Assembly (NCBI GenBank): GCA_000004985.1
Contig: GG738904.1
From: Naegleria gruberi
Taxonomy: Eukaryota
Length of the DNA: 64,000 nt
Reading direction: 5' to 3' (one strand)
Shown: in pieces, positions 10,773 through 43,475 of the stretch
Numbering within the stretch: the first letter of the stretch is position 1
Layout: each line of letters opens with the position of its first letter
Program-made: the position numbers and the translations under genes
The notes under the pieces: generated by a model
What the model was told of the DNA's origin: nothing
Seen by the model: the letters and a program-made list of their open reading frames with translations, nothing else
Database searches by the model: none

Positions 10773-12263
10773 CTAAAGTTTTAACGAAGTCATGGATGAT
10801 AAACTGATCATTGGAGATCTTGGTGATAGCCTCTTTTGCTTTGCATTCCAATCATTTGAAACTTTCTGAATGGTCTTGTTAGAGAATTTGAGTCTTGAAT
10901 AGGAATCTACCAAGTTGCTCAGCACGTGAAGTTGAATATCGGCAAATAAATCATCTGTTAATGCATTTTGATTATCTGCAAAACTAATATTGTCCATAAT
11001 TACGGTCTTTACAGAATAGAGATCAGAGGGCAAATTCAATTGGAAAGGTGAATCTTCGTACAAGTATTTCTTTACCATTCGGTGTGCAATTTTCTTTCTT
11101 TGCCTTAATGCTGTTTCACGTTTATATTTCTCAATATCAGCATAGCACAGCAAATTTTCAGGGCAAAACGACTTTCTCAAATAATCCAAGAATATTTGAA
11201 ATGTTTCCTTATTGGAAATTATCATTTCAATTTCTGAATCACATTCTCTTTTTTCTTTTGAATCTGCATGGATGGCTCTAATTATAGGAATTAAAATTGT
11301 GAGAACCAACTCGAATGTACTGTAAGCTGCAACTACAAATCCAGAAGGAACGAAATAGTCCACAATCTCTACCACTGAAGCAACACTTAAAAATGTAAAG
11401 ATTACTGCAGTCAAGATTTGAGTGGCAACCAAAAGGAAAACTTCCCTCTTAATATGCCAAGTATCATTGTCAACAGTAAAGCAAAGTCCAATAGCAATAA
11501 ATTCCACAATAAAATAGCAAATACTAATTCCCACAACAAATAGAGTTGAGGGAAACCCTAACCCACATCCTTTTCCAAGTGAAATCAAGAGTGCTCCATC
11601 CATAAAGTAATGTTCATTTTGGAAAAAGCTATCCTCTACTACCATAAGCACAAACCACAGAAAGAGTTGGACTCCAATGGAAAGCCAAAATACTATGAGA
11701 GATGCTGTATTGTTGGTGAGAATGGAGTGTGCCTTGATGATGAATTTCTCTCTTGTCGTATTCTCTTCACGAGCTATAACTTGATTATTTTCAAAAGTTT
11801 CCACAACAGATGTCATGACTGATGAATTGACATTCCTATTACTAGTTGATATACTGTTGTTATTACTATTGTTGGAATTTTGTTTGGCTTGAATAAACAA
11901 GCTCTCTGTGTTCTGTTGTTCTTGTTGCATGCAATAGGAGCTTGATAAAGTGTTTGTCTTTATCAAATTGAATCTGTGCTGAAATACTAATCGCAAACAC
12001 CTCAATATTGAAGGCATTGCAAAACAAGGAGGAATTGAATAGCTAACAATACTAAATATCATACAGGGAAATCTAGATCTACCAACCGTAAAACGGAGAA
12101 GAGTAACAGATACATAGATAAAACTCCCTGTTAGTGTAACTACAATACCACTGATGGTACGTGATTGAAGATGTCCACTTTTCCTCTTCTTTATCACTCC
12201 TATGGCACAAATAACAACAAGAATGATGTACAAAACCAAACATGTTGCTGATAATATTGGCAT
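10773..12263 (-). CDS. 7TM receptor-RGS fusion protein
   Basis: Seven hydrophobic helices at the N-terminus. The C-terminal RGS domain reads ETFQIFLDYLRKSFCPENLLCYADIEKYKR...HRMVKKYLYEDSPFQLNLPSDLY...SYSRLKFS. ATG at 12263. Confidence 0.7.
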   Translation of the reverse strand: MPILSATCLVLYIILVVICAIGVIKKRKSGHLQSRTISGIVVTLTGSFIYVSVTLLRFTVGRSRFPCMIFSIVSYSIPPCFAMPSILRCLRLVFQHRFNLIKTNTLSSSYCMQQEQQNTESLFIQAKQNSNNSNNNSISTSNRNVNSSVMTSVVETFENNQVIAREENTTREKFIIKAHSILTNNTASLIVFWLSIGVQLFLWFVLMVVEDSFFQNEHYFMDGALLISLGKGCGLGFPSTLFVVGISICYFIVEFIAIGLCFTVDNDTWHIKREVFLLVATQILTAVIFTFLSVASVVEIVDYFVPSGFVVAAYSTFELVLTILIPIIRAIHADSKEKRECDSEIEMIISNKETFQIFLDYLRKSFCPENLLCYADIEKYKRETALRQRKKIAHRMVKKYLYEDSPFQLNLPSDLYSVKTVIMDNISFADNQNALTDDLFADIQLHVLSNLVDSYSRLKFSNKTIQKVSNDWNAKQKRLSPRSPMISLSSMTSLKL

Positions 12264-13455
12264 GATGATGGTATCATTACAATTGGCCCATTCATTCTTT
12301 TGAAAGGAAGGTATGGAGGAAATAAATTCGGGACACGTTGAATTACTACTATTAGTATTGTTGTTGTTGATATATTAAAATTATTATTGTTGGTAGAATT
12401 TTGTTGTAATTTAAAATTAATGAGTAACATCCTAATTGTAATGAACAGGCTTAAATTATTATTACTATTATTACTATTATTCTTGTTGATGTTTTACTGA
12501 CTTGTTTGCAAAGTCTCTTTTTTATAATATAGGAAAAATTCAAGCAAATGTTATCATACATCATGGCAACTAATCAGGAGTATCTCCAAACATCATTCAG
12601 AGATGGTACATCATCCCACATTATACCCATAATGATGAAAAGTATTAATATAACAGTTTTTTTCTCATCACCAATTTAATTACATATTTTTTGAAAAAAT
12701 TATTTTTTAAAATATTATCATAATACCTTGCTTCACCAATAATTACTTATGATAAGGAGAAGACTTGATTTCAATATCAAATAAGGCTTCAAAACGCTTA
12801 TTGAATTTACGTGAACAGTTGGTGGAAACCGTTGGTGGACCCAACACATTACGCGCGCAAAATTATTTTCCCTTCACTTCATCATCAACTACAGCGGTAT
12901 TCTATTTAATTCACCACCGAAACAAGCCAACAAACAAATTTCCAATATCAACTATTGAGCAAGTTTACAAAATTTTAATACAATCCCCAATTGTATAATT
13001 CTATATTCTCCAAGACATCAACATTTCCAATACCTTTCAGTCAAATTCTCAGCGATTTCATTCAAGTTATGTGCTTTTTTGGTGACCTTCTCCGCCCTCA
13101 TCAATCCTTAAAAAAGAAAAAAAATTTAAAACACACGCACCATTTTCCACAACAACAACAAAAACTGCACACAACAACAGAGAGCTACAAGAATAATAAT
13201 AATATTAAGAATAGCGACAGGACAATATAAAATTCATATACAAAAAAATGGTCCAAACCTTTGAGAATAATCAACTTGATGATGATGATGAATTAATGAT
13301 CACGATGAAGAATACTTCATCTGCATCGGTATCGAGTAGTGTTGATGCTACTGCTGTTGTGGCCGAATCCGAGAGTAATTTAATGGCAGCAACAAATTCA
13401 TTATCTACAACCGAAAACAGTAAAATAATTCGATGATCATCATGGCAAGAAACAG

Positions 13456-20436: not shown

Positions 20437-21660
20437 TTATTTCTTCTTCTTGGCAAAGAAGTTACCAGAAGAAACCTTCTTTTCATCCACTGAAGTCAAA
20501 TTAGAAAGCTTATCCGAAACTTGGCATGAAGCAATTCCTTCGTCATAGAGTGAAAACCATGGATAATTATTCTCCTTATATGTTTTCTTAGAGATTGGAG
20601 TAGGTGGACACTCCTCTCCAGTAATTTTCTTCCACATTTCACTATTCACAATGTGGACGAAACATTTGCCAGCTGCAGTCAAATCCCAGAACGATAATCC
20701 AAAAGGATCCTTATAAATCTTTTGCTCAATTCTTCCACCAACACCCAATCCCATCTCCATTCCATCACTTTCGTCTTCGGTTACAGGTCCTCCTCCTCTC
20801 AATCTCAATACCAAATGAAGTACACCTCCATTTGTAATGTTGTAATCTTTCAATGTTCTTCCATCTTCCAATTGTTTACCAGCGAAAATCAATCGTTGTT
20901 GATCTGGAGGAGTTCCATCTGCCATCTGAACTGCATACTTGACATCTTCAATTTGATCATTTGAATCTGTATAAACAACAATAGTTTTACCTGTTAAGGT
21001 TTTGACCAAAACTTTCATGGATCCACCACCAACAGTTCTAACTTGTCTTTCAAGTGGTAAATGTGAAAGTGCATCTTTTCTTGCTTGATAAATCCTAAAT
21101 TGAATTCCACCATAATCAGCATTTCCAGTCAACTGTTCCTCAACTGTTTTTCCACTTCCAAGTGGCATGGCAACAAATTGCTTGACAGTTGTTTCATCAC
21201 AAGCAATTCCATCAATCCATAATTGATTAGGGAGAACCATATAGTTTTGTTTCTTATTCTTTCCAAAATCTGATTCATCCCATTCATCTCCAGTGAGTGC
21301 ATTGATCATTCCAACTCCCATTTGAACAGCAAGTGGGAAATCATTGTTGGTTACATCTGATTGACAGAATGGCATGTTGTGGAAACTATTCGAATAGGAA
21401 AATTGAATCCACATGGCTTCACTCTGATATAATGGAATGAATACTCCACCATGTTCTAACCAATGGGCAGGAACTGTTTTTGAATAATCTTCTACTCTCT
21501 TTATTGGAAATCTACCTAAAGAGCATGGAAGAGGATAAGTTTTTCCATCATTGGGAATTCTCAAGGTTCTATGGAAGGAAATTTCTAACGAAGAATCAAA
21601 TAGACGGAGAGAATGTTCTTCATTGACAGTTATTGGAATGTTATGTTCTTGTACGAGCAT
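20437..21660 (-). CDS. protein with an internal ubiquitin domain
   Basis: Residues around 225-300 read [77 protein letters not shown]. That is a canonical ubiquitin fold with the diglycine tail, embedded between roughly 220-aa N-terminal and 105-aa C-terminal regions with no recognisable family. ATG at 21660 in an A-rich context. Confidence 0.6.
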
Positions 21661-21745
21661 TTTTTTTGTTTACAAAATCACAAAACTCAAAGTTAACCCT
21701 TTAGTATTATGAAAATGAAAAATTGGCAAGGGTTCCCCCTGTTTT

Positions 21746-21767
21746 CTAGTCGCTTGTTTGCGACTAG
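21746..21767. promoter_or_regulatory. perfect 8-bp inverted repeat / hairpin in a divergent promoter region
   Basis: CTAGTCGC-ttgttt-GCGACTAG. It is GC-rich relative to its surroundings. It lies between the divergently transcribed genes at 20437..21660 (-) and 22167..23294 (+). Confidence 0.3.
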
Positions 21768-22166
21768 CTAGGACTAATAAAAGTTTATTTTTACGACGAT
21801 TATTGCAGGGCGATAGGTTTTTGGTTGGTGGATAGTGGCAAAAATTGTTTGAACCAAAAAAAGGATTGATTTGTTGTAAATGTACAACAAATCGAAAATA
21901 AAAAGATATATTTCATTCGCCCAATACTGTACTAATTCTCTCCTCTTGAATAGTACCAAAAGGGTACTAATCTTCCACCCAGAGTATTCTTTCGATTACC
22001 CATCAATAGTGGTGAGGCCAAGATTCAATACTTAATTGAGTGAAATAGTAACATGTTCATTGTAAATTTTACGACTGTAGCAATGTTCATTGTAAATTCC
22101 TAAAATTCTATTTTTAATCTTTAAAAAAAATTCTAGAAAAGACGTTTCTGCACCAAATCAACCAAA

Positions 22167-23294: not shown

Positions 23295-25625
23295 TTACTA
23301 GCCAATAATACCATTATTATCTCTACATTGTAAATATCCACCACTTCCAAATAAAACAAGTTTTCACATATCTCACACAATTTTAATTTACTAGAGCATC
23401 TCTACTAAACTTCATACTCAACCGAGAACTGTGAACATGAAGATAAGAAGATGAACTGCAACTTTTGTATGTCAAGACTGACACTAAAATATGTTCCATA
23501 TTTGTATGTCCACAACAATAACCAACCTGGATTTTGGAATGGTTAATATGGGCATAAAACGTGGATGCAAGAGATTCCACTCAATGTGTCTCAATTCTTC
23601 TCTTTCTGTCCAATCTTTCTATTTATTGAAACTTGTCATCACTTTCAGATTGGAGAATCATGCATTAACTGATCACTTGAATATACTACTTTTGAAATTA
23701 AAGAGAGAGGCAACTACAGCTCCGTTCCAATTCATTTTTCTTGGAGTTCAACTACAGTTTTTCAACAAACTGCTTGACCGTTTACAATCATTTACAAAAT
23801 ATTAATTATGAAAGTTGTTGGCAATTTACAGTTCAGAACAACTTCACCTCTCAAACCCTTAACTGCCAAACATCATTCAAACCTTAGATCATTTACAATT
23901 CGGTCATGGACTCTTTTGGCTAATTATCTATTATCTCCAAACTATGAAACCTATCCTCAACCATGCCTTACACTAATCACCAACTTTCGTTCCTACAAAA
24001 TTGACTAAGGTTGAGTGACTTGTTGATGGAAATCTCCCGCCAAATAAATTAAAAACTCAGAGACGTTACGTTTGAAAATTTTAAAAAAAAAGGCTAGAAA
24101 TCTTCCCTGCTGGTTTGATAAGAAGCCTCAAATGAAGAAGCCTTTTCATCATCAGAGTAATAATTTAATTTATAGTATGATAGTAGTATTTATTCCTAAT
24201 AGTAGTAATCAATGAAATGATCATTCTACTGTGATGCGATCAATATTCAATATATTATTAATATAATTCAAATAATTATTTAAATAAGCCTAAAGTGAAA
24301 AAAGCATCATGAATCATCAAAAACTGTAGATCATCATATGATCAATTACAATTTATCGTAAACAGAACTGATGGCCAACAATTTATTCAAAATGGCAGAA
24401 TTATCAGCATGAATCATTAATTATTCAAATTAATATTATTTTCGATCAATTTACTTTTTCTGATATCATGTTTCTTTTCATACTGTGCTTGCTGATTATT
24501 AAACCATAACAACAATTAACATACCAGAGGAGAACAATTCCCCCTCAATACCGCAATGACAATAGTACAAATTAATTCAACACAATACTGTTAATGGTAG
24601 AAAATTATACACTGTGGCCACACACGAACATAACCAGAATTGTACCTCTATTAATTATACTATCTAGTAATTATTGAACATATTATAATACTTAATGGTA
24701 TTTAACTGGGACAATAGCAATGAAATTCGAATATTTTCAAAATGTTTCATTTATTGAGACCTTTTATTGGTGATATGAATGTTGTGAATTTATTTTACAC
24801 CAGATTAGTTTTGAAAAACCTGAAAAGATGTTCATAGCACCTTATTTTATTTATGCACCAAAATTTCCATGTTTGTATTTTTGATCAATTACGTCTACAC
24901 CACATTTAAATACCGGAAATAACCATTTTAAAAAATTGTCATCTTTCCAGTCGTATTTGCATCCTTATGATGATGTTTCAACATGCAATCTTAGAGAGAT
25001 AATCATCTCTGTTCGTATTACTTCATTACTTCTGATATCATGTCATAATGATTGTATTTTTAAGTTATAGAGATACACTTCACTATTGTTACAATAGTGG
25101 AATTGAGGCGGGAATGACAGTTGGCAGTTAGTTAGTTGGCATTCAATATCTTTTATCTTGTACAACCAACTCAACGTTTGTTTCACAACAAATCATAGAA
25201 TATTCACTTTCAATGGCATTACCATTTTTCAAACTCAAATCTCCTATCATTAATAACTTCAAAACACCTCAACTATACCATACAACAAAACTTGGAGGAA
25301 TAGAATAAGATAATTACAGTGAAAATTCTTGTATTTGCTCTCAAATTACCCGATATAGAATTCTATTTACTCAGTTCGATTATAGAGTCCGTATCTTGTA
25401 CTATAAGAGAGATAATTTAGATTGGTTTAAAACATTTATGGCGTGAAGTTTGTACAATTCGATAATTCCAATAGATTCAACTTAAATTCATGGACCAACA
25501 ACAAATTGGTGGAGCAAAATGAATTTGGATTGGACGTCTGATGCCTCCCAAAAGTATAAATTCAAGCCAAACAGCAACATATTCCACCCAAAAACAAATC
25601 AAAAAAAAAACAACACACAAGTGAA

Positions 25626-26183
25626 ATGAACACTACTGCATCAAATAACTCTGCTCCAGTTTTTGGCAAGACCTCAACAACTAATAATCAATTACTTGAT
25701 ATTGATAATTTTTCCTTTACTGACATAATGTCTGCTGCTAGTCAATTTACTGATAACGCTTTTACTTTCTCTGAATCATCAACATATACTGTTGCTTGTT
25801 CAACTCCAAAGAAGAGAAAGATGAGTGCTAGATATGAAGACGAAATGGTCAATCAAGATGGTGATAACGAAGAACAACAATTAACTGTAACAACATCTTG
25901 TAAGAAAGTCAAAATGGAAACCTATACTGCTGCTACTTCTCCAACAAAGAAAAAGTTGCCAATCTTTAAACTCTCTGAAAATAAGACAAAAGATGCCAAT
26001 GTTGATCCAATGAACGCTGACTGTTCATCAATGAGTGCCTTGAAGGGAAATATGTTAGATTGCTTTAATTCAATTAATAGTATTGCTAGTGAATTGAATG
26101 ATGACTTTTTCAAATCATCAGTTTCTTCCTTTACTTCAGCTGATTTACAAGATTGTCTCAGTCTCTTGAATCAAAACTTTTAA
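25626..26183 (+). CDS. small S/T-rich protein with KKRK motif (paralog 1)
   Basis: 185-aa ORF standing alone in a gene-poor region. It shares TFSESSTYTVACSTPKKRKMSARYEDE and a C-terminal DCFN motif with the ORF at 29695..30093. Confidence 0.35.
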   Translation: MNTTASNNSAPVFGKTSTTNNQLLDIDNFSFTDIMSAASQFTDNAFTFSESSTYTVACSTPKKRKMSARYEDEMVNQDGDNEEQQLTVTTSCKKVKMETYTAATSPTKKKLPIFKLSENKTKDANVDPMNADCSSMSALKGNMLDCFNSINSIASELNDDFFKSSVSSFTSADLQDCLSLLNQNF

Positions 26184-29100
26184 TTCTCTCAACAATCAAA
26201 ACTTTTAATTCTCCTAACTGTACAGATTTAACTTGTAAATTAACTGTAATCTAACTCCCTCTAAGGTTGAATCAACTCTCATGGCTCAACAACTCTAAGA
26301 AATACTTTATGTATTCTAATAAATCAGAAAATCTTTGAAAAAACTTGAATTGTTTATTCTCTCCAATATTTAGTGAGATTTCTCTTCTCTGTAATGTATT
26401 CGAATCAAATGATGAATGCCCAAAGATTTGATCGTTTGTATTGTCGTCATCTTTACGAGAGGTATCACCATCACTGCTGAGAGCAACATCTACTTTAAGA
26501 TAGTTTACAAACCAAACTTGGCGCCAAAATTACAAAAATCTCTCGAGTCATCATTGTAATGGAATCCAAACTTGATGAAATCATAGACTATTATATTAAT
26601 TGATCAACCAGTAAGCAATACCAAATGCTGCTTTACAATTTCCTTTCAAATATTAACTTGCAAACAACATGAAAATCATCGGCGGTACTTAGTTGATTGC
26701 TGACATTAACTTCACTAACAATAAAGTTCAACAAATGCCTCATAACAAGTAGGAAATCACTCAAAGTAAGTGAACGGTTTTTTGTCATTGTACATTACTC
26801 ATAATGAAGTTCTTGATTCAAGTCCCATATTTTGGCAGGTATAGTGCTAAAGCGTAAGTAAAACTGTCAGATTTCATATTAAATTTGATAAAACATTAGT
26901 AAGATGTATAGCGTGTTCCAAAGAGAAGAGATTCTCTGTTCTTAAGTTCTTGTTGTTGATTATTATTGAAATTACCAACTTTAAAGTTTCCTAAAATGGT
27001 TAATTTGTGAACAAAATTAAAGGTATGTGAATAGATGATTCTTTACTGTAGATTGTTTTCATTTGTGGATGATTCTTACTGTAGATGACAATTTAGTTTG
27101 GAGTTTAGTTTCGTTTGTTGATTCGCTCCAATATTTGAGGCTAATGTCGTCATTGTCACCGCTTAATTATTGAAGATTGACATCATTTTAAATCATGGAA
27201 TTATTCCTCAGCTATTAATTATTCTTTAATCTGCTTGTTGCTCAATAAAAAAACCTGTCGATTAAGAACAAGTTTCGAATATCAGATTGAGTTGCTCATT
27301 TGGAGTTTGAACATGATAAATTAAATCAAACAATTGGAAAACTTGCAATTCTGTAAGATGACAAGCTGTAGACGATTATTGTATGAATGTATAATAATTA
27401 GTTTGTAAAATCTATTCGAATGTATATTCATCTTCAGAGGAAGCACTAACACATGGCAATTAACTTTTCTTTTTGGCTAATCCGAGCGTTTCGAATAAGT
27501 GGAATATTGATCACAAAGTAGTAAATTTTCAACTATTTGTGAAATGATTCTCATTCGTGGGATGAGCGACATGTCGTTGATCAAAATTATCAGAAACTGG
27601 ACTAAACACGATGTTGTTGATAATTCTCATCCGAAATAAATGAGAGAATATATTGTAATTCAATGAAATGGTCAATCAGATTCTTATTTTCACTTGAATA
27701 ACCGTAGATGTTACTGTAGTTTCGTTTCGAATGTAAACTAATCTGCAAGTGAAGCCCAATATTCAGATTCTCTTCAGTATCATATCACAATTCAGCCAGA
27801 TACTGATCCTCATCATCCATTTACCATAATTCCAATAGATGTCAAACTGTAGTGACCTTTCTTACAAAGAGTGGACGAAAGCTTTAGTATTTGATATTCA
27901 AGATGATAAATCATGCAACTCAATAAGCAGTAGTTTCTGCAATTGACTGGAGAATATTCATTAGATACTTTAATTTGCAAGCGTTCCAAATTCTGCAATC
28001 ATATCATAAATCTTCAAAAATATCTGAAACTGAACTAAAGTGGATCAAGGAAATCAAAAAAACATGATTCGTTAGATTTTTCAGTGAATATACAGTGTGA
28101 TTGTAAAACTGAGGAATACATTAGAATTGTTCTACATGCATAAAAATTGTAAATTTACTGTAGTTCGAAAGTGAACTAATGTGAAACGATTCTTCAGATC
28201 AATAAAAGGATAATATCACCCATGAGCAGATAGCTATCTCTCTTCCATCTATTTCACATGTTCAACGATTAAAATTCACTTCAAACTCTTTTTCACATGG
28301 TTTGTAAACTTTCGAATAAGTTTTTATACAATAAATCGACAACTTTCAAAGAATCTTCAAAACTTACTATTCTTGTTGAGCTGTCATCAATGAAAATAGT
28401 TATACGCCAAACATTGATAATTAGAAAGTTACCATCTTTTGCAGAGGATGAAGTTCCCTGTCAAATAATTGGCAAGTCACCTGCCAGTAAATAAAACTCT
28501 AATTTAAAGTGTAAAATTTACTTGTTTTTCAATTATGTTTCAACTCTGTCGATATTTAAACATTGTATCAGTTTCGGATTATACTTTCGAATAGCTGTTC
28601 TCAGGCTGTCATTCGAATAGGATTAATTTTCTTGATTTGGTAGTCCTATATCCGTATCAAAGATTCTTGTAGCCAATAATTTATGTTGTAAGTTGGAATC
28701 TTGATTAATTACCATTCTATATTTTCGCTATTCGAATTATGTTTCGTATACGAATTATTGGACTTGTGAAATTAAAGATATATTCAAATGTTGCTCCTGC
28801 TCTATTGTTATCCAGTTGTGGTTGATCATGTTTCCTAACATGTTCCTCAACTCGTCATCTCACCTATTATCCATTCTTGGAATTTCAAAAACCTCAATTA
28901 TTCGAAACTCATTGTAATCGAATGCAAATTAATAAAAGAAGAACTGCATTTCATCATTGATATCAATTCCATTCTTTTTGAAATTCACTGTAGATTAATC
29001 TCTATTCGAAACTACAGTTAGTGAACTAGTGTGTGAGTGGGGAGAAATCAATAAGAACGCAACAGATACGAAACTTGAAGGAACTATCCAAACACAATCA

Positions 29101-29694
29101 CTTTCAATCAACGGTGAAAAGTAACTAATTAGAAATTCGTAAATACGAAATAAAACTAATGTCTCTGTCACTTGTTATTTTATTTCTAACGTATTTTGAA
29201 TTGACAGATAGCTAGCCGGCATTGTGCAAAATCCATTCATTCATGAAAATAATCATTTATTTAGCTCTGTAATCATTTAACAGCTTTTTCAATAAATTGA
29301 TAAAACATTTGGCAGTTGACAGCTCTTTTAAACAGCCAACCTCAAATTTTTGACTTATCTATCACGAATAAACTTGATTTCATCTTGAAAATACTCGAAT
29401 TATTTTCTTTGACTTGTTTTATACTGAAATAAACCATAAATACAGAAATTTTGAATCTCCCAGAATTGATTCTATTATTTCTAAAACGGAATCTAATTAC
29501 ACTTTGAGTGATTATCATCTTCATACAGCTGAAAACTTTTTCATGGTCCACAGAATTAACATTTTCAATCCTTCTTCCTTTTTCTGTCATTGACAAGTGA
29601 CAAGATCATGGACAGTATAAATATCAACGAATTTTGTGCATCAAATGATTCAACAACACAAACAAAAAAAAACAACAAGAACAACAAAGCAAAA

Positions 29695-30093
29695 ATGAGC
29701 TCAACTGCTATCCAAACTCCAACTTTCTCCATGACAATGATCTATGACGTTGCTGCTTCAAATGATAAGAAGAGAAAAACTTCTCCAGTCAGCGAAGAAG
29801 AACATCAAATTGCCAACTGTCAACCAAGAAAATCAATCAAAGCTTCATCATCAACATCTCCTTCAAGAAAGAACAAAACAATTCCTAGAGTTGAAAGTCC
29901 AAAACAACAACCTGCTCTCCGTACTAGTGGTTGTACTTTGAATGCTGTCAATAATCAAGAATTATTGACATCTGTCTACTCAATTGAACAAAATATCAAA
30001 GATTGTTTGAATGAATTGAAGGGAATGGAAGAATTTGGTTTCTCTTCTGAATTGAGCATGGAATTTGAACAAGCTTTCTCCATGTTACATTAA
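29695..30093 (+). CDS. small S/T-rich protein with KKRK motif (paralog 2)
   Basis: The internal ATG at 29695 (aaaaATGagc) aligns with paralog 1: PTFSMTMIYDVAASNDKKRKTSPVSEEE ... DCLNELKG. The longer ORF from 29590 is also possible. Confidence 0.35.
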   Translation: MSSTAIQTPTFSMTMIYDVAASNDKKRKTSPVSEEEHQIANCQPRKSIKASSSTSPSRKNKTIPRVESPKQQPALRTSGCTLNAVNNQELLTSVYSIEQNIKDCLNELKGMEEFGFSSELSMEFEQAFSMLH

Positions 30094-31264
30094 GTCAACT
30101 GTCAATTTGACATCTAGGAATTTTGAATCGATAATTGTGATTCAAAATTTGTAAATTTATTCGAATGTAAAATAAGAACAACAACAACAACTCTAGGCAA
30201 ACATCGTACTCACACAAGTAGTACCAAGCGAGAAGAAACATACACTTCCTTCTCAATATTCCAATTTTGTAAAATTTTTGATCATTATAAATTATTATTT
30301 CTTTAAAAGTTTATTCAATTTCTTAAAAAGTGTTCGAAATAAAGTTTCTAAAAGTATTCGAATCAAAACTAAATATTAAGTGAACATTCATCCGCAACAA
30401 ATAGGATCAGCATTTAATTCTCCAAATAAGGGTGTAATGAAATTCAGTGATCACAAACAAGGTGATGAAAATGATAAATATTGTTAATAGCAATTTTCCA
30501 CTAATTTCAAGGCATACAATTGACAATAAAGGAGTGATTTCGCCTGCAACAGATGGATTTGGTTGTGTGACGGTTCATTGCGTGAGGAGTGTTTGCTAAT
30601 ACAATTGATTTTACAATTTCGAATGGAAGAGTGGATGATAGGGACTTGAAGTTTGTAGTGGATCCTTAATACAACACGAATTGAAAAGCATCATGTACAG
30701 AGCTACCTTTTGGTTGTAATTCACGTGTTGGTTTTCCAGAGTTTCGTCTCCTCCAATGGCACAAGTGCTTCATTCTCTAACAGTTCTGAAAGTCTTGCCA
30801 TGATACGAACGTACTTTCACTATTTCTGATAACATGATATTCTCCAATATATTTGAATCTTAACTACGATAGTTAGGGAAATAAATAATTTACAAATCAT
30901 TTTGGTGGAAAAGAGCTTTTTAATTATCTCAGTAATATCATTACCTGTCCACCCATATGAGTTGTCAACAAGTTTCAGAAACTTAACCTCATCACTGGTC
31001 ATGTAGAGCATATTCTTCTCTGAATTCATAAAATTGACAATATTATTAAATGTTATTGTAAACATAAACAATGGAACACAAATGAAGAAAGTAATCTCTT
31101 CCTTTGTTTCATTGTTTTTATATTTTATAATAATATTAGTAACCTTGTTACTTTGTTACTTGCTTAATTAAGATACCGCTCGTTCAAAATCAGTGCCATT
31201 TACATAAATGAGTTGCGACCTAGATGCTCAAATACGAAACATCAAAAAAAATTAAACAACTATA

Positions 31265-32276
31265 ATGCATTCCTCCTCTTTGAAGAGATTACCTTCACAG
31301 CAACTTGTGTTGATGTTTGGCATGTTTGCAGTGATGGCTCACTTAGTATTTGGTCAAAACATATTCACCCAAAACTTTAAACAGGCCATCAATGCTGCAA
31401 CCAATGAGTACAGTCATTCTCAGGAATGGAATTCTTACAAGGCAAGTCTTGGTTACACCTTTCCTGTTCCTACTTGTACCACAAGTGCTAATGACGCTGT
31501 TTATCCACAAGTATTCAATTGGACATTGAATGAGCTAGTTCTTTGCTATGAAATGGAAGCAGAAGATCCATGGCCAATGATGCATGAAAAGGCAGGGACA
31601 ATTACTTGTCAAGGCATTGAAAAATCATTACAATATCTTCAATTTGACAGCTAATTTCTTAATTCTCAATACCTCACAATCAGGATATTTCCCAACATTG
31701 AAAAATGCTGTTCAGAGTTCAATCTGTCATGTTGCTATTGCGTCCACAAACTATGAAGAAAGTAGAGCTAGTGAAGTTGACTTCCAATGTAAGTATTATT
31801 AAGAGATATAGTTCTCTAACACATGTGTAGGTCCATATGGAACAAGTTATACAGGAATATTGAGATCAGAACGTGATAATAACACCATACTAACCACACC
31901 TTCCGATCTTAACAAGGAAGGAATAATTGTTGCAGCTCCTTATTTGACAACTTCCTATGAGTATGCAAAATCCAATTTTCCAAAAGCAACCATCCTATCA
32001 AACTTTGGCTATAAAACTGCCTATAAAATGGTTTTTACTAAGGAGGTCCATGCTGTGGTTGGTGATTACATTGAAATGAGTGAATGGTTGGAAGCAAATA
32101 AGGGAAATTGCTCTCGTTGTTATATGAAAATTACAGATTCTTCTCAGAATTTCGGATCTTTCACAGCCAAATTTTCGGTATCATCAGCGAGAAGTAGCCT
32201 TCTGTATGGAGAGCCAATTATTGTTCTTCTTGATGATGATTATTGGTTTAATGGCAATCTATTAGAATTCTTATAA
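31265..32276 (+). CDS. secreted protein, possibly a type-3 solute-binding-protein-like (periplasmic binding protein) fold; three exons
   Basis: The signal peptide is MHSSSLKRLPSQQLVLMFGMFAVMAHLVFG. The exons are 31265..31607, 31651..31788 and 31831..32276. The introns are 31608..31650 (43 nt, weak GTCAAG donor, phase 1) and 31789..31830 (42 nt, GTAAGT...GTAG, phase 1). They join three ORFs that lie in different frames. The C-terminal GIIVAAPYLTTSYEYAKSNFPKATILSNFGYKTAYKMVFTKEVHAVVGDYIEMSEWLEANKGN resembles SBP_bac_3 lobe 2, so the fold call is tentative. Confidence 0.4.
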
Positions 32277-32644: not shown

Positions 32645-34396
32645 TTATTTGGTCGGAATTTTAAGTGAATCCAGATTCAAATCACTTCTCAAATTCTTCA
32701 CCTTATTACTCTCAAACTTGACCTTATTCTTCTTAACATGTTGCTTTTGAGTTTGTTTCTGAAATTCCACAGTTTGCTTGAATCGATGATGAGTATCCAA
32801 CATCAAGACACATATTTCACTTTCCACATTATCAAACAGAGTATCAGTCAAATGTTCATTCTCACCACTTGCAAAGTAATCCAATTGTTCCTTAACTCTA
32901 TCTGCAGCACTCTTATTAATATTCACTGATTTGTCTCCATTGATATCGAGGAAATCAGTGTAAATTTCAAAGGCAATTTCGTACTTTTTCTTTTCAATTT
33001 CATGGAGATCCTTCTCAGTGTAGCCCTTCTTCTTCTTCTTTTTGTGTTGATGGTCCAAGTTGGAGGAGTTGGCAGTTGCAGAGCTACCTGAATCGGAGAG
33101 AGAATCAGAATGAGAATTTGGACTCATGTCATCATAGAGGAATACTTGAATTTCAAAGGACTTTTCACACAGGATTTTGTAATCTGTAATTTTGTCCAAT
33201 AGTAAGTAATTATCCAAACTCAATTCTTGTTTACAATGGTCCCTGAATAGCTTTCTCAATTTGTTATCCCTCATAGTATCCATCAAGAGGAAGGCGTTGG
33301 CTGCCTTGAGCTTTTTCGTATTACTTGCATCCTTTCGAATAGAGACAATGATTGAGGCAATCACTGATGGCAACACAATGCAAATGGAAACACACACCAC
33401 AATGAGTGAAATTGTAGTGATGGTTACATTAACGCTTCGAGAACTATCTTCCAATTCATTCAGATAGTCAACTGTTGGCTGGAATTCTTCACTGTATCCT
33501 GCAATGTCATATTTGTAAGCGTCAGATTCTAATAACGTCATGGCATATGAATAGTTTCCAATATTTGCCAATTCTAACATTTGAGTTTCAAGAGCAATGG
33601 CCTTGGAAGTTCTCAAATCAGCAACTGAAACATTATGAGTATAGGTATATCGCAAATTAGTTGGCAAATAGGCCAACATTTTCGTAATTTCAGTATTGAA
33701 CTTGGTCTTACTCGTTTCGTATTTTGCAGTATAATTGGCTGTCAGTTGCAAATTGTTATTGGTATAGACAGATGATCTGCAAGCTGCCACCATTCTTTCT
33801 CTATACAATGTAATGTTCAAATCCATACTACCAATTGCTGTTTGTAATTCCGAGTTGACCACATAGTAAGCCACAATCAGGATAAGAAGAGCCATAAAGG
33901 CAAGGAAATTTACAATAAGGGAACTCAAATTCAAAAATTTGACAGGAGTCAATTCAATCGTGGAACCGAAACAAGTTCTAATTTTGAGCATGGTTGTGGA
34001 GGAATGACTTTTAGTGGTAGTCTTTGAACCAATACCAGAGGCAGATCTAGGTTGTTTCTTCTCACCATTATATGGATTACCAGTTGCCACATCATGTTCC
34101 TCAGCAAAATTGGCATTTCTATTCGATTTGTCCATCAGAGCCATCGATCTCATCTCAATGGACACAGAACTGGACTGATGCAAATGATTATTATCATGAG
34201 ATTGCAAAGAACTCGTCGAAGTATTCAAATCAGTTGGCAAATGATGAGAACCATTGGCATAAAGTGAATAATCACAATTATTTGGATCAATTTTGTGAAG
34301 TTCTTCAATGACATTTTGGATGGTTGACTTTTCATGGAGTGAATTCGAAGGAGTGGAAAGAGAAGGATGTTCTGTGATATTCTCTTGTTGCTGCAT
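32645..34396 (-). CDS. two-TM sensor-type RGS-domain protein
   Basis: The first ATG is at 34396 (MQQQENITEHP...). TM1 is LIVNFLAFMALLILIVAYYVV, followed by an extracytoplasmic domain of about 190 aa, then TM2 ISLIVVCVSICIVLPSVIASIIV. The C-terminal RGS domain reads LRKLFRDHCKQELSLDNYLLLDKITDYK...EIAFEIYTDFLDINGDKSVNINKSAADRVKEQL...ICVLMLDTHHRFKQT and carries a low-complexity insert. Confidence 0.6.
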   Translation of the reverse strand: MQQQENITEHPSLSTPSNSLHEKSTIQNVIEELHKIDPNNCDYSLYANGSHHLPTDLNTSTSSLQSHDNNHLHQSSSVSIEMRSMALMDKSNRNANFAEEHDVATGNPYNGEKKQPRSASGIGSKTTTKSHSSTTMLKIRTCFGSTIELTPVKFLNLSSLIVNFLAFMALLILIVAYYVVNSELQTAIGSMDLNITLYRERMVAACRSSVYTNNNLQLTANYTAKYETSKTKFNTEITKMLAYLPTNLRYTYTHNVSVADLRTSKAIALETQMLELANIGNYSYAMTLLESDAYKYDIAGYSEEFQPTVDYLNELEDSSRSVNVTITTISLIVVCVSICIVLPSVIASIIVSIRKDASNTKKLKAANAFLLMDTMRDNKLRKLFRDHCKQELSLDNYLLLDKITDYKILCEKSFEIQVFLYDDMSPNSHSDSLSDSGSSATANSSNLDHQHKKKKKKGYTEKDLHEIEKKKYEIAFEIYTDFLDINGDKSVNINKSAADRVKEQLDYFASGENEHLTDTLFDNVESEICVLMLDTHHRFKQTVEFQKQTQKQHVKKNKVKFESNKVKNLRSDLNLDSLKIPTK

Positions 34397-35352
34397 TTTG
34401 GGAGGTGATTGAGTTGGATTGTTTTTTTGAGTTTGGATATTCAATAGTATGGAGGGTTATTAATATCACAATAGTTTTGAATAGCTTGTGTGTGATAAGA
34501 AGATGAAGATTAAATGTGCGCGCTGTTGGGTTAATGTAATAGAGCATGTAAGAGATTGAGAAAAGGAGTCCTTCATCTTATTTACAATTAGTTTCGTACT
34601 TCTAACAACTCCATTGGAAACTGGTTGGAAAATTCCCAAATTCAAACATTCAAGCATTGCAGCTTTGTTAAATATCAAACATAAAAGTCATTTGTAAAGT
34701 ACGTCCACTCTTTCGCGCACTAAATTTTTGACTCATGTGAAAAATCGATGGTCAATTGTTACGTTCTTGCATGAAGCGGTATTTTAAAATTAAGATCCTC
34801 ATGTGGTAAAGTAAATGAGAATTTGTTGATTTGGAGACATTTTAGGAAGATGACAGTTCTCCCATAACGAAGAAGCGTACTGATTGAAATTGTTCTTTGG
34901 TTTCGAATAATGTTAATATTACTGTAGTTTAATGTTAGAACTGTAGTTTCTGTTCACTGTGAAATATTTCCGCCACCAACACTTACTGCAACAAAATTAC
35001 GTAGAAATCACACTCGGGATGAAAAGAGATTAATCTCCACTGGTATTTTAAAGTAATATTTAATTATTCGAATGGTTTCTTATTCTATAACTAAGGTCAA
35101 ATTACTTGCCGATTTTAGAACGTCGACATTCGGCGAAAGAGAGATTGAGCCGAATAACAAAACTTTCCATAAATTTTCACTGCATGACCAATTTATTTGA
35201 TATTGGAAACTGATATTGACGCAGACGAAACAATTCTTCACTCGCATTACATTGTTTTGTGTGGATATACTTGTCTAATTTTCTTCTCTGGATGTAATTT
35301 TCATCTACAGTGAACCCAGTCGAAACTGTAGATTGATGGTTTGTTGATTCGT

Positions 35353-36153: not shown

Positions 36154-37476
36154 TTACATGAAATTCGAATACCTTTCAAATTCCCAATCAGTCACACAAT
36201 GATGCACATATTTATCCCATTCTGCTCTCTTAGCCATCTTGAACATGTTGAAATTATGCTCCAGGAAAACTTCCTTCATGAGTGGATCCTTTTCAAATTC
36301 CTTAATGGCTTCCAATAAATTTTCAGGTAATAGTTCGAGACCTTCCTTCTTCAATTCCTCATCCGAATAGTCAAAGACATTGTCTGTTCTGGCAGGTGGT
36401 GCTTCCAATTGATCTTCCATGCCTTGAACACCAGCAGCAATTAAGACACTAAATAAAAGATAGGGATTGGAGAGGAGATCTGGTGAACGAATCTCAACTG
36501 CAGCATCATTGGCACTGGTAAAGAGTGGAACTCTCAATAGGGCAGTTCTATTCTTGTATCCCCAACAGGCAATGGTTGGAGCTTCAAATCCATTCACCAA
36601 TCTCTTATAGGAATTGATGGTTGGATTGGCAATGGCTGTAATTCCCTTCACATGTTTCAAAATGCCGGCAACGTAGGATTTTCCTTGAGCTCCCAATTCA
36701 TCTTGAGCTCCTTCAAAGTTACCAAAGGCGTTGATTTCCTTTCCAGTTTCGTCTTGCTTGAACATTCTCATGTGAATATGTTGTCCACTTCCAGCTTGAT
36801 CTCTGAATGGTTTTGGCATGAAATTAATTTCCAATCCATGTCTGTCAGCAATCACATGAGACAATGACTTGAACATGACCAAATTATCAGCTTGTTTCAA
36901 CAAATCAACATGATTCATTTCAATTTCGTATTGACCTATTCCACATTCGTGATGCAAAACTTGAACTGGAATATTCAATCGTCTACATTCCAAAGAAAGG
37001 TCCATAATGAAAGCTTGTCCCTTAGCAAATGGATACATGGTTGAATATTTACATTGATCGAGTGGTTTTCTAGTTTCCTTATCTAACAAGTAGAATTCAG
37101 GTTCAATCTTGAATGTCATTCTTCTATTCTTTGCTGTCAAATACTTTTCAACAGTTCTTTCCAAGATATATCTACAATCAGAATCAAAATGAGCTCCAGA
37201 ATCTTTACCAACAACGTGGCACAAGACAACAATTCTTCTCATTGGCTTTTTTAACATTGGACAATTGACAGATTCAGGATTTGGATTGGAAATCATTGAA
37301 ATTGGAGGTAATTCAAAGATTGCTTTTGGATCTGGTCTCAAACGAAGATCACTCTGATTAACCAATGCAAATCCAACTGAAGATCCATCAATGGAAGCTC
37401 CTTTCTTCATGCAATCATCTTGTAATAATTCTTCAATGGTGATTGGTGGTGGATTTGAGAGAGTTGGAGTGGTCAT
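36154..37476 (-). CDS. glutamine synthetase, GSI (prokaryote-type) family
   Basis: 440 aa. The catalytic-domain signature is HMRMFK...NPTINSYKRLVNGFEAPTIACWGYKNRTALLRVP. The N-terminal beta-grasp region is present. ATG at 37476. Confidence 0.8.
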   Translation of the reverse strand: MTTPTLSNPPPITIEELLQDDCMKKGASIDGSSVGFALVNQSDLRLRPDPKAIFELPPISMISNPNPESVNCPMLKKPMRRIVVLCHVVGKDSGAHFDSDCRYILERTVEKYLTAKNRRMTFKIEPEFYLLDKETRKPLDQCKYSTMYPFAKGQAFIMDLSLECRRLNIPVQVLHHECGIGQYEIEMNHVDLLKQADNLVMFKSLSHVIADRHGLEINFMPKPFRDQAGSGQHIHMRMFKQDETGKEINAFGNFEGAQDELGAQGKSYVAGILKHVKGITAIANPTINSYKRLVNGFEAPTIACWGYKNRTALLRVPLFTSANDAAVEIRSPDLLSNPYLLFSVLIAAGVQGMEDQLEAPPARTDNVFDYSDEELKKEGLELLPENLLEAIKEFEKDPLMKEVFLEHNFNMFKMAKRAEWDKYVHHCVTDWEFERYSNFM

Positions 37477-39214: not shown

Positions 39215-40210
39215 GTTTTCGGAATGTACAAAGAAAAACCGGATTAAACCTTAGATTGACTAGTTTGAGTATAGGTAGTAGTATTAGTATTAGTTGTTGT
39301 TGTGTCTTGTTCGGATTGATTTCTATTGAAAAAATCAAAGGAAGGATGATATAAACACATGACCAAAATTGAAAATATTAAAATTCCCAAACAATTCAAA
39401 AAATCATAAAACAATGATGAATAATTCCAGACAAAACTAACAGCACCCAATCCAACTGCAATAATTTGAAAAAATGTTGAAAATATCAAAACTGAAAGCA
39501 AAATGATAATTTTCAAAATGGGTTGTTTCCATGAATAGGATTGAGATTGATCTTTGAATTGTTTTCTTGTCTTGTTGAGGAGTATAATCACTCTTGAAAA
39601 CACAATCTATTCATTATTTCAAAATAATTTTAGTTTTCATAATTTGCATTTAGAATTATGAGAATGTTAAATGAAAACTTACTGAAATTGCAATTGTTTG
39701 AACAATTAATTGAATTGCAAAGAATGCGAAACAAGCAATCACGAATATGAACAATATATCATCAGCATATGGTATCCCAACAGTTTCTGTTGTCAATGTA
39801 CTATTCCTGTTTATCATAACATCTTGATAGAGTTGATCTGTTTCATTCACATTATTCACTTTCAAATAATTGTGAAATCGTTCAACAATGGAAATATTAC
39901 AAAAAGTATAAGCAGTTCTTGCACACAATGCCAATGTTTGAACAATCAACAATGTATTCACGAGAATGAGAACAATTCTCTGAGCCTTCCTCAATGTCTT
40001 CCAAGTTTGATTCCTCACAATGAAAATAATCATGACAAGAATGAGTGAAATGAACAACAAGATGAAGAGAAAGGAAATCGATTGATCTATAGCACTCAAC
40101 AGAGTATCATCAAAATCATCAATAGTAAACACTGGAGAGGAGACATTGTTGGTAGAAGATGACGTTTCGTTTACCTGGTAGTTTACTAGAAGAGCTAGTT
40201 CGGCAAGTTT
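39215..40210. repeat. inverted segmental duplication, arm A
   Basis: High nucleotide identity to 44125..45350 in the opposite orientation. Homology ends about 30 nt past the stop codon on one side and near the start of the coding region on the other. Confidence 0.7.
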
Positions 40211-40225: not shown

Positions 40226-40956
40226 CTTTGTTTGTTTTTTTCTTTTGTGATTAGTGAAGTATGACAACGTTACAGGAATGAAAACGAATAACAATTTGAG
40301 AGATATGGATTACTAATTGGAAGAATAGTTGCAACTAACAAATATAGAAAATATTTCCTTGAAATATTTGCAAACCCCGAAGCACTCCAGAAATATTCAC
40401 AAATTCAAAAGTTAATTGTTTCTTTCAATCGATAATTATGAAGTTGCAGGTAGAAACAAGCTCTCTGCAACTGGTACTTTTCGGCAAGGAGTTATCTCGA
40501 AAAAAATGGAAGAAACCACCAGTTAAATAGTTCAATAAGGATGTACCAGAGAAGTAAGATTCAGTGATGCAATTCTATGACTACTACACTATCTAGATTT
40601 TCCCAAAAAACAATGTCTGCAAATGAGCCTGCTAGAGTTGACAGACTAGAAATATTTGCTGTAAACTCATCGAATCTTCAGTTTGAAAACATAGAGAGGG
40701 TAAACAAGCTAATTATTACAAAAAGAAATCTCAAAACTTCTATTTTCCAATTATTTACTCATTTCCTTTTGGTAAAGGATATTTGGCAATGGATTATGAA
40801 AATAATCTTGATAATTTAGTTTCATTCTTTCCATTTATGGATCAAGTTCGAAGGTTTCGTATGTCCAACCTGTTGGACTTTAGCAATGAGAAATAGAGCG
40901 CCAACGTATTGTGTTCAACACAGAGATACCACAGAACTTGGATTTATTCAAAAAAA

Positions 40957-43475
40957 ATGCAAAGACTAAACTTTATTAGAATCCTTTGCTGCTACTTGCT
41001 TACAACAATAATCTTCATGTCAACATGTGTTGTTGAATGTAGAAACATGCATGTCATTGACAAACAAAGTCAATTGCGAGATATATCACAACCTTTCACT
41101 GTGGTTTCTATTCGAAAGTATTACACAAGTTTCGTCAATCATTTGGCACCAATTATGACCTCTGGAGTGGAATTTCTTTCAGATAGTCGACCTCTCCAAG
41201 AATATTTCAATGTTTACTGCGTTTATACTTCAGTTTTCAGCAGTGGAAATTTGGCGCCAAATGACAATTCCATATTAAGTAATCTCAACTCTTCTATTTG
41301 TTCAAGTATAAATCATTTAGACGATTCCAACATGCCAATCGATGCTGCCCATAACAGTTATCTTGTTCTGAACCAAGAACCTTCCATCATCTTCTCCCCA
41401 AATAGTTTACTTCCACTTTGGTCAATTATCTTGAAAAATGCAATGGTTGACCAGACGATGAGGTATAAAGTTTGGAATTATTCGATTTCTGAAACGTTTA
41501 CAATGTATGCACTGTATGATAAAGCAACAAGTATGGAATATGTGTTGGATAGCGATCTAGTTTCGAATAGGGAAGGAATTGTAAAAGAATTGGAAGAGGA
41601 AATATGGAACGATTGTAAATTATTCGAAAGAGTGTACGAAATTCAAATGAGAGAAGGTTTAGGATTGGGATTTTCGTCAATCTCCATTTCTGAAAATAGG
41701 ATTTGCAATGAAACATTACAAAATTCAACATTTATGGAAGAATATCATCAAGCAATTTTGAGAATTGATTTATACTTGAATTTAATGTTGAATTATTCGA
41801 ATCTTGTGAATACTACTGGAAGTTTAACTCAAATGCTTCCAAGTTCCACTTTCTATTTTATGGATAATCTTATTGCTACCTTTAATCCAACCTTTCTAGT
41901 GGAAGCTATTCGAAATGTTTTACAAAATGGAGGATTTAACACATATTTGTCCTATTCGAAACCTTCCTCGAACTATGATATGGAATACTTCTCCATGCTT
42001 CAAAAATCAGATCTGAAACCAGTTTCTCAACTCATGATTCATCCAAATTGTTTCTGCTATTACAACTTGTATGCCTCTCAATATTATTTCAGAGATTCTT
42101 ACCTTCTCAAACTAATCTTCAATGATATAATCTATTTTGGAATATTTTTTATTGGAGTTTTCATCTTCCTCTTTAATTGTGTGAGTTACTGCTTGGATTG
42201 TAAACTTTTTGTAAAGAAGAGAATTCTCCTTCCCTTATTAGGACCTCCAACGTTGATTGTAATCTCAGCATGTTACACTGTATTTTTGAGATCGAAATTT
42301 TCAGTGGCCACTTATTGGATTCTTGTGATTATTGCTGTTTTTCCTGCTCCAATTCTAATTGGTACTTATTTAGTTTCCTTATTTAGATTTTCCTATTGAA
42401 AAATATGGATTTGTGGCAGAAAAAGATTTTCAAATCACCCAAAATTCAGAAACACTTGGCTTCCACATGTACTTCAATGGTATTTTCCATAATTACAACC
42501 TTAATTGTCCTTGTCATTTGTTTGGCACCGATTGTCACTACTTCTGTGGCTATTTTGTTTAGTTCCGCAAATATTCCACAAGAATTGTTTATTCTATTGA
42601 TGGGATTTGAAGTTCTCTTCATGCTATTGTTTGCATTGATATTTTTCATAGTTGACTTGATCAATACTGGAGCTGCAATGATTAAGAGGAAAGGTTTAGG
42701 ATATTATTTCTTCTATGATGATCCTTTCTATTACAGAATTGACTTGTTTATCATGATCTTAATGATGGGATCTGTCATTCCAATCATTGTTGGTTCAGTT
42801 GAGGATGGAACTCCCTATTTCATTGTTCGAAAGGTCTTTACAGTAGTTTTCTTTGTCATGTTCTATGCAATCATTGGTGGAACTGTGACAATTGCTCACT
42901 GGATCAACAAGTTCAGAAGACTGAAATCCAAATACAGAAATGCACAAGTTACCACATTGGAATCATTCTTGGAAGATCAGCAATTTAGAGAAATGTTTCG
43001 AACCTATTCCAAAAATGAATTTTCATTGGAAAATATTATCATGTATGAAGAATTGGAAAAGCTAAAAAAGAACAATAAGGTAACCCCTCAGGAATTGAAA
43101 TCTCTTCAAGAGAAATTCCTCCTTTCATCCTCTGTTCATGAAGTTAATTATCCATCGGCAGTTAAGAAGAACTTTCAAGAATTATTGGATTCGTATAAGG
43201 ATGAGGACGTTTCTTCCAATGACAGTGATTCAACCACACAAACAAAATCATCCAATTCCCTTAAACAATCAACAGGACTTCCAAAGAAGGGAACTGTTAT
43301 GTTGGAAAAGATGTTAGAATTGGTCATGCCAGAATTATTGAAAAACATGTTTGACACATTTTCTCGCTTAAAGACAACACCTGAATTTGGGCATTGGTTT
43401 GAGATGAAGCAAATACAGACAACAGAATTGGGAGAGGAACAACACCAAGAACAACCAAAAGATGAGAAAGTTTAA
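40957..43475 (+). CDS. large-ectodomain 7TM receptor-RGS fusion protein (apparent frameshift at about 42390-42400)
   Basis: ATG at 40957 gives the signal peptide MQRLNFIRILCCYLLTTIIFMSTCVVEC. The ectodomain is about 390 aa. There are 3 TM helices at the end of ORF 40909..42399 and 4 TM helices at the start of ORF 42396..43475, which makes 7TM. The C-terminal RGS domain reads LESFLEDQQFREMFRTYSKNEFSLENIIMYEELEKLKK...NYPSAVKKNFQELL. The two ORFs overlap by only 4 nt next to an AAAAA run. No intron of plausible size fits, so this is a 1-nt indel, either an assembly error or a pseudogene. Confidence 0.5.

Follow-up and report, generated by a model that had tools for sequence, protein, structure and literature searches.

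Three membrane-tethered RGS genes within 32.7 kb of the Naegleria gruberi genome: members of a large repertoire whose proximity is probably due to chance

Fusions of RGS domains to transmembrane (TM) segments are present in most eukaryotic lineages (PMC3971589), and two of the described systems closest to the genes considered here are of this kind. In Arabidopsis, AtRGS1 is a membrane-tethered GTPase-activating protein (GAP) for the self-activating Gα subunit GPA1, which it presumably keeps switched off as long as no signal comes in (summarised in PMC9283941 and PMC3971589). In the amoeba Naegleria fowleri, 28 seven-transmembrane (7TM) RGS proteins, some of them with elaborate ectodomains, stand beside 79 other RGS proteins (Bosch, Jeck and Siderovski 2022, PMC9283941): The RGS domains of 7TM-RGS2-4 are GAPs for the N. 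fowleri (Nf) subunits Nf Gα2/3/5/7, of which Nf Gα5 and Gα7 are self-activating, and their binding to Gα is selective for the transition state (GDP-AlF4) and is lost with a switch-I Gly-to-Ser mutation (PMC9283941). For Naegleria gruberi, 229 RGS proteins have been reported (De Mendoza et al., PMC3971589), so the abundance of RGS proteins in this species, the RGS-TM fusions and the Naegleria 7TM-RGS class are already published (PMC3971589, PMC9283941). Here, we analyze a stretch of 64,000 nucleotides from N. gruberi contig GG738904.1, referred to as the window, which holds three genes with an RGS domain behind TM segments between positions 10773 and 43475: gene 1 (7TM-RGS), gene 2 (TM-ectodomain-TM-RGS) and gene 3 (signal peptide-ectodomain-7TM-RGS). 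All three are already present in the N. gruberi annotation as 'predicted proteins'. We consider it likely that they, together with a fourth RGS gene in the window, are members of the very large N. gruberi repertoire that are unrelated by recent descent, that their products are tethered to the membrane, and that they lie close to each other by chance. The positions of all features are collected in Table 1.

With Pfam family PF00615 and its gathering cut-off of 23.9 bits as the criterion, an RGS domain is found in each of the three genes, as a previous reading of the locus from sequence only had claimed. It scores 43.4 bits in gene 1 (aa 346-454 of the open reading frame (ORF) 10773-12263, minus strand), 31.0 bits in gene 2 (aa 390-561 of ORF 32645-34444, minus strand, with a low-complexity insert inside the domain) and 30.3 bits in gene 3 (aa 188-266 of ORF 42396-43475, plus strand). 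The topology was derived from a Kyte-Doolittle hydropathy scan combined with the counting of loop charges according to the positive-inside rule, and it agrees with the three architectures proposed by the sequence-only reading, except that the ectodomain of gene 3 comprises 363 aa rather than 390. In genes 1 and 3, seven TM segments lie N-terminal to the RGS domain and the odd loops as well as the C-terminus are rich in Lys and Arg, which places the N-terminus outside and the RGS domain in the cytoplasm. The placement of the RGS domain directly after the last TM helix also stands: The two are separated by only ~20-25 residues in each of the three genes.

The Gα-contacting residues of solved RGS complexes are conserved in the RGS domains of the window. 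The Asn of the alpha5-alpha6 loop, which corresponds to Asn128 of RGS4 and occupies column N75 of our alignment, is invariant in all four domains. Moreover, genes 1-3 retain an 'S-x-E-N' motif that aligns with human RGS2 and RGS10: Their '..PEN', '..LDN' and '..LEN' line up with the 'EEN' motif of RGS2/RGS10, and in gene 1 the Gα-contact motifs 'PEN' and 'LNLP' line up with 'EEN' and 'INID' of human RGS2. In the fourth RGS domain 'LEL' replaces the Gα-contact motif 'xEN/xDN', so that the Asn is missing there.

The earlier reading had seen in these genes a special local concentration of signalling receptors, that is, a true cluster, and this claim did not hold. The genome of N. gruberi reportedly measures 41 Mb, which at 229 RGS genes corresponds to one gene per ~179 kb. 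For one interval of 32.7 kb chosen in advance, the Poisson probability of three RGS genes is ~9e-4. Random placement of 229 genes on 41 Mb, however, yields 3.4 triplets within 32.7 kb per genome (P(>=1) = 0.96), and the same simulation yields 0.45 quadruplets within 43.5 kb (P = 0.33); with ~3.4 chance triplets expected per genome, the trio is therefore not beyond chance. The four RGS domains of the window share 18-23% pairwise identity, the fourth domain and that of gene 1 being 18% identical, and the nearest paralogs of genes 1, 2 and 3 are each encoded on other scaffolds and are closer than any window mate. Gene 3 takes rank 156 among the matches to gene 1 within the proteins gathered. In addition, the RGS genes are separated by ~15 unrelated genes (kinases, DUF4116, a ubiquitin-domain protein, glutamine synthetase and others), and synteny with the window is absent from the two loci examined in N. 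fowleri and N. lovaniensis, where the relatives of gene 2 that were used may be paralogs rather than orthologs. By sequence comparison, genes 1-3 are thus not recent local duplicates of each other, and their proximity is best explained by chance together with a loose residue of old family expansion, not by a functional cluster.

Several points weigh against this overall reading. If membrane-anchored RGS genes alone are counted, the probability of the trio drops to 0.015-0.25; this calculation is post hoc, assumes 40-100 such genes and is suggestive at best. Of the RGS genes in the window, BLAST connects genes 1 and 3 as the only pair (21% identity over TM5-7 and RGS, E 7e-5), a similarity that is weak but real and that makes an ancient local duplication possible. 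Two further points concern single genes, both taken up below: The assembly carries a frameshift in gene 3, which could be a pseudogene, and the best fold match of the gene 2 RGS domain is SNX13, which belongs to a family that is not primarily a Gα GAP. The first two of these points would fit a true signalling island, in which either an old local duplication diversified in place or selection brought together a co-regulated set of receptor-GAPs, a cyclase and orphan 7TM genes. With four RGS domains in 43.5 kb, the density is also ~16x the genome average (lambda 0.243), and the RGS family duplicates locally elsewhere, as in the tandem of P0025 and P0018 in N. lovaniensis and in pairs of N. gruberi paralogs of gene 2 that share scaffolds. 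Nevertheless, we regard such an island as very improbable given the number of chance triplets, the low identity of RGS domains that each have closer relatives elsewhere, the interspersed unrelated genes and the lack of a shared neighbourhood at the N. fowleri and N. lovaniensis loci examined; moreover, the genus has ~80 or more cyclases (PMC9283941), so that one of them in 64 kb is nothing unusual.

If the window proteins work as their described relatives do, their TM part would hold the RGS box on the membrane's inner face, where it would speed GTP hydrolysis on a lipid-anchored, partly self-activating Gα. By analogy with AtRGS1, where endocytosis is one example of a ligand-dependent change of GAP action, a ligand bound to the 7TM core or to the ectodomain would then alter the access of the GAP to Gα, whereby Gα signalling would be released or restrained. 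In gene 3, the large ectodomain is a possible signal receiver beside the 7TM core; in gene 2, a ligand-induced helix displacement would pass through TM2 and reposition the RGS domain relative to the membrane-bound Gα. Domain content, topology, conserved Gα-contact residues, membership of the families and the absence of recent local duplication are shown by the analysis. GAP activity has been shown only for the N. fowleri relatives of the 7TM class and may, by analogy, extend to the window genes; their regulation by ligands is an inference.

Architecture and family membership indicate that genes 1 and 3 are 7TM-RGS 'receptor-GAPs' of two different subfamilies, within a class that comprises AtRGS1 and proteins of Naegleria and Trichomonas. 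They share with the N. fowleri class the genus and the combination of a 7TM core with a C-terminal RGS domain, and large extracellular N-termini, as in gene 3, occur in some N. fowleri members as well. Within this likeness the distances are considerable: Gene 1 is only 25-33% identical to the named relatives with which it was compared (P0046, P0047, P0048 and P0056), and the sole named relative of gene 3 is P0043 from N. gruberi itself. With AtRGS1, to which we compare them by topology, both genes share the succession of 7TM core, short linker and RGS domain. In contrast to the plant protein, which is present in a single copy, Naegleria has dozens of such proteins; gene 1 furthermore has a low-complexity intracellular loop 2 of 102 aa and gene 3 its large ectodomain.

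In gene 1, seven hydrophobic segments span aa 6-328, the K/R-rich loops are cytoplasmic and the RGS domain follows the last TM. Searched exhaustively with HMMER, gene 1 has 444 relatives at E <= 1e-3, 51 of them at E <= 1e-30. The named ones come from N. gruberi, with the nearest paralogs EFC46151, EFC40015 and EFC37410 on other scaffolds, and from N. lovaniensis, N. fowleri and Willaertia; many of the relatives span TM1 to RGS and are full-length 7TM-RGS proteins, among them P0056 of N. fowleri. The annotation of gene 1 coincides with its ORF, and the annotated protein, P0194, has the same length. However, the paralogs P0046, P0047, P0056 and P0073 align beyond 12263, up to 12335 (tblastn), with an in-frame stretch upstream of the ORF (Table 1). 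Because this stretch holds a conserved Cys motif in frame and lacks an ATG, the annotated start of gene 1 is probably internal, and a 5' exon is probably missing from the model.

Gene 3 encodes a signal-peptide-like segment, the 363-aa ectodomain with 6 sequons and 7 Cys, seven TM segments and the RGS domain. The sequence-only reading had treated it as one gene at 40957-43475; the architecture is correct, whereas a single ORF is not present: ORFs 40957-42396 and 42396-43475 lie in different frames and overlap by one base, and seven TM segments are obtained only after repair of a 1-nt frameshift at 42396. The paralog P0043 (N. gruberi, 836 aa, 55% identical, on another scaffold), which is the single close paralog of gene 3, reads 'FRFSYLKNMDLWQK' across the junction. 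At 42394-42398 the assembly has TATTG where TAT TTG is needed, that is, it is one T short at 42396-42397. Since P0043 is continuous across the junction, the split of gene 3 is a 1-nt frameshift and not an intron. A 47-nt GT..AG intron (42373-42419) that would join the two ORFs was considered and rejected: It would remove 'VSLFRFSYLKNMDLWQ', which is conserved and colinear in P0043. The repaired protein comprises 839 aa, is colinear with P0043, with the junction conserved exactly, and shows no further stop in its 839 codons; its identity to P0043 amounts to 68% in TM1-3, 63% in TM4-7 and 54% in RGS and tail. Since the identity is similar on both sides of the shift and no other stops occur, an old pseudogene is less likely than an error in sequencing or a mutation that is allelic or very recent. 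P0042 (586 aa), the public model of gene 3, starts at an internal Met, skips the signal peptide and has TM1-5 spliced out; it is almost certainly wrong. A metagenome scan found no intact version of the frameshift site.

Alternatively, gene 3 may be a pseudogene, in which case the 1-nt deletion would be real and the locus, which lies inside an inverted repeat with 98% complementary arms, a decaying product of rearrangement. The frameshift is, after all, present in the reference assembly, an intact paralog exists elsewhere in the form of P0043, and both flanking repeat copies look defective, the left one missing two TM helices and the right one an in-frame ATG before TM1. On the other side stand 839 codons that contain no other stop and the equal identity to P0043 across the shift, as would result from an error in a T run, made in sequencing or assembly, or from a mutation that is allelic or very recent. 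We therefore take the pseudogene as a serious possibility that is nonetheless rather unlikely.

The ectodomain of gene 3 matched no Pfam family, and in particular no EGF, lectin or GPS domain; gene 3 thereby differs from the GPS/GAIN-containing 7TM-RGS members of N. fowleri in that it has no Pfam-detectable GPS. A reading of 'HPNCFCYYNL' immediately before TM1 as a GPS/GAIN site was rejected: Neither gene 3 nor P0043 gives a Pfam GPS hit at E <= 0.1, and the GPS-like 'CFCYYNL' corresponds to 'CFSYYNH' in P0043, so that the second Cys is not conserved. An AlphaFold2 model of this ectodomain, built from a three-sequence alignment, reached a predicted local distance difference test score (pLDDT) of 35.8 and is unusable.

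In gene 2, the RGS domain is preceded by two TM segments (aa 157-175 and 332-350 of 583), between which lies a loop of 156 aa that contains five N-x-S/T sequons. Gene 2 retrieves a coherent family, every member of which has the TM-ectodomain-TM-RGS layout and which comprises at least 6 proteins in N. gruberi, at least 3 in N. fowleri, 7 in N. lovaniensis and 5 in Willaertia magna. The five further N. gruberi paralogs (P0016, P0027, P0029, P0030 and P0033) lie on three other scaffolds, are 42-58% identical to gene 2 and are in some cases paired on one scaffold. On the strength of these sequence matches, the two-transmembrane (2TM) RGS proteins are a conserved Naegleria/Willaertia multigene family; the statement of the sequence-only reading that the 2TM-RGS topology is uncommon is accordingly true across eukaryotes and not true for these amoebae. 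In N. lovaniensis (PYSW02000030.1, 7524-11722), the members P0025 and P0018 are arranged in a head-to-tail tandem, from which it follows that the family expands by local duplication elsewhere. In N. fowleri (VFQX01000006.1), the gene 2 relative P0017 (10001-11884) lies ~10 kb from a G-alpha gene (21646-21884), which is an anecdotal observation.

For gene 2 we computed an AlphaFold2 model of 450 residues, starting at ~aa 134, from a 26-sequence alignment of the family. Its mean pLDDT is 81.5, with values of 82-96 in the ectodomain. According to the model, the helix of TM1 continues on the outside into an all-helical bundle, whose final helix runs on unbroken (173-243) through TM2 and a linker of 20 residues to the RGS domain; this predicted fold supports the earlier description of gene 2 as sensor-like. 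The ectodomain is the most divergent structured part of the family, with a mean identity of 31% compared to 62-65% for the RGS domain, and such a divergent ectodomain next to a conserved RGS domain is the sequence pattern expected for a variable sensor with a conserved output. Across the 2TM family, the positions S260, N263 and N359 do not vary; they represent the Gα-contact Ser/Asn motif and the Asn of the catalytic loop.

The helical-bundle ectodomain of gene 2 (~150 aa between the two TMs) is structurally similar to solved ligand-binding domains (LBD) and resembles in design the bacterial four-helix-bundle sensors Vc1313-LBD (8bsa), MCP2201 LBD (9kup), HK9S (3va9), PcaY (6s18) and NarQ (5iji). 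In contrast to these chemoreceptor and histidine-kinase sensors, gene 2 is eukaryotic, and its output is an RGS domain instead of a HAMP/kinase-control module or a kinase. None of the 26 family members matched 4HB_MCP, TarH or related Pfam models at E <= 1, and the family profile found no PDB sequence at E <= 0.01. Because a profile link to bacterial sensor families is lacking and helical bundles are easy to evolve, we claim a similarity of design, not homology, and the simple bundle fold common to both may be convergent. As a speculation, which we consider unlikely, the 2TM family might constitute a so far undescribed class of eukaryotic 'chemoreceptor-like receptor-GAPs': After binding of a small ligand to a dimeric ectodomain of the four-helix-bundle type, the continuous TM2 would transmit a piston or rotation movement to the RGS domain and in this way gate the switch-off of Gα. 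If true, heterotrimeric G proteins would here be coupled to a transmembrane sensor of bacterial style, which either arose by convergence or goes back to the ancient acquisition of a bacterial sensor module. The searchable literature yielded no work in which the 2TM-RGS proteins were recognised as a distinct, conserved family of Naegleria and Willaertia whose helical-bundle ectodomain is chemoreceptor-like.

A further known system close to gene 2 is that of the TM-anchored RGS sorting nexins SNX13, SNX14 and SNX25. Gene 2 and its family could, like them, be organelle-anchored scaffolds, whose RGS domain is not chiefly a Gα GAP and whose helical loop is a luminal structural domain. The divergence of the family's RGS domains (31 bits in Pfam, and the profile search of PDB sequences mentioned above) would agree with this view, an extracellular and a luminal loop would agree equally well with the N-glycosylation sequons, and some RGS domains have lost their GAP function (PMC3971589). 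PXA, PX and PXC domains, however, are absent from all 26 family members, and gene 2 differs from the sorting nexins also in its 156-aa inter-TM loop and in an RGS domain that comes straight after TM2. The invariance of the Gα-contact Ser/Asn motif and of the catalytic-loop Asn likewise speaks against a scaffold, as does the ectodomain, whose divergence is much faster than that of the RGS domain, a pattern known from receptor families; the N. fowleri relative near a Gα gene points in the same direction, anecdotally. A scaffold role hence appears quite improbable to us, and a membrane-tethered RGS protein that acts on Gα remains the preferred interpretation of gene 2.

Convergent to gene 2 and ~370 bp from its stop, a gene for a signal-peptide protein occupies 31265-32276 (+). 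Its product resembles bacterial solute-binding protein family 3 with a sub-threshold score of 19.2 bits (cut-off 26.4), and a switch of frame near 31650 points to another frameshift or an intron.

Table 1. Genes and other features of the locus, in the numbering of the 64,000-nucleotide window
Feature	Position	Strand	Details
Fourth RGS domain	8-448	+	Pfam 27.8 bits; C-terminal end of a gene cut by the window start
Gene 1, 7TM-RGS protein, EFC38874 / D2VWC0, 496 aa	10773-12263	-	TMs ~11280-12248, RGS 10902-11228
In-frame stretch 5' of gene 1 ('..STCPEFISSIPSFQKNEWANCNDTII')	12264-12374	-	No ATG; matches the Cys-containing N-terminal ecto-segment of the paralogs
Gene 2, 2TM-ectodomain-RGS protein, P0015, 583 aa	32645-34396	-	TM1 33872-33928, ectodomain 33404-33871, TM2 33347-33403, RGS 32762-33277
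Inverted repeat, left arm, orphan multi-TM gene (5 TM)	39222-40159	-	ATG ~40225, stop ~39244; in-frame 258-nt deletion
Gene 3, part a: signal peptide, ectodomain 41038-42126, TM1-3	40957-42396	+	Hydropathy; 54-68% identity to P0043
Gene 3, part b: TM4-7 (to ~42875), RGS ~42957-43430	42396-43475	+	Other frame; Pfam RGS 30.3 bits
tRNA-Gln(UUG)	43699-43771	+	ARAGORN; Rfam tRNA 68.8 bits
Inverted repeat, right arm, 7TM orphan gene	44167-45356	+	70-nt GT..AG intron 44905-44974
Multi-TM / TPR_TmcB / PAS-like / class III cyclase gene	59539-64000, past the window end	+	Beyond 10773-43475

The duplicated 7TM/5TM genes noticed beforehand are real and form the arms of an inverted repeat, which brackets a 4-kb segment that holds gene 3 and the tRNA-Gln gene. 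The arms are 98% complementary (87-98% for the individual repeat pairs I1-I4), and this arrangement might enable the middle segment to invert or might itself be an artefact of the assembly. In the left copy, the 258-nt in-frame deletion takes out two TM helices; in the right copy, no in-frame ATG is found upstream of TM1 in its exon. Neither of the two orphan multi-TM copies contains a Pfam family. Of the PAS-cyclase gene that had been placed alongside the RGS genes, the cyclase part is confirmed by a Guanylate_cyc score of 60.7 bits for the spliced visible fragment, and TPR_TmcB scores 28.1-28.3 bits. The PAS match remains below threshold at 18 bits and is partial because a 50-base N gap (63443-63492) interrupts the PAS-like region, and the gene lies outside the interval spanned by the three RGS genes.

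As to the source of the DNA, 9 of the 10 long ORFs looked up are exact N. gruberi NEG-M proteins (EFC38809-EFC38879, UniProt D2VWB6-D2VWD9; 297,120-bp scaffold), which identifies the window as nuclear DNA of this free-living heterolobosean amoeba. GC content is ~33% across the whole window, which is dense in genes with few and short introns; four tRNA genes are scattered over it, and Rfam and tandem-repeat scans yielded solely these four tRNAs and Sel1 repeats. Two genes look like possible old bacterial acquisitions: a glutamine synthetase of 440 aa at 36154-37476 (-) with a Pfam Gln-synt_C score of 309.9 bits, and a microbial-type PARG gene at 9632-10691 (-). An identical glutamine synthetase is encoded by the ENA 'metagenome' contig ERZ929261, so the sample behind that contig probably contains N. 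gruberi DNA. An ORF-poor stretch of 8 kb extends over 23300-31200 and has only two short ORFs, 25626-26183 and 29590-30093, which are weakly similar to each other (27% identity) and neither of which matches any family.

Taken for the biology of the genus, the analysis mainly confirms the published picture: Naegleria possesses a very large set of membrane-tethered RGS proteins, which are probably receptor-GAPs for self-activating Gα subunits, and the proximity of the trio carries no special meaning as a gene 'cluster'. Two N. gruberi gene models need correcting, namely that of gene 3, which is frameshifted and mis-spliced, and that of gene 1, whose N-terminus is probably truncated. Moreover, the 2TM-RGS proteins become recognisable as a conserved Naegleria/Willaertia family. 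How GAP activity is controlled from the extracellular side is still a question for AtRGS1 and for the Naegleria proteins (PMC9283941), and for its study the 2TM family offers a simpler and more tractable system than a 7TM protein.

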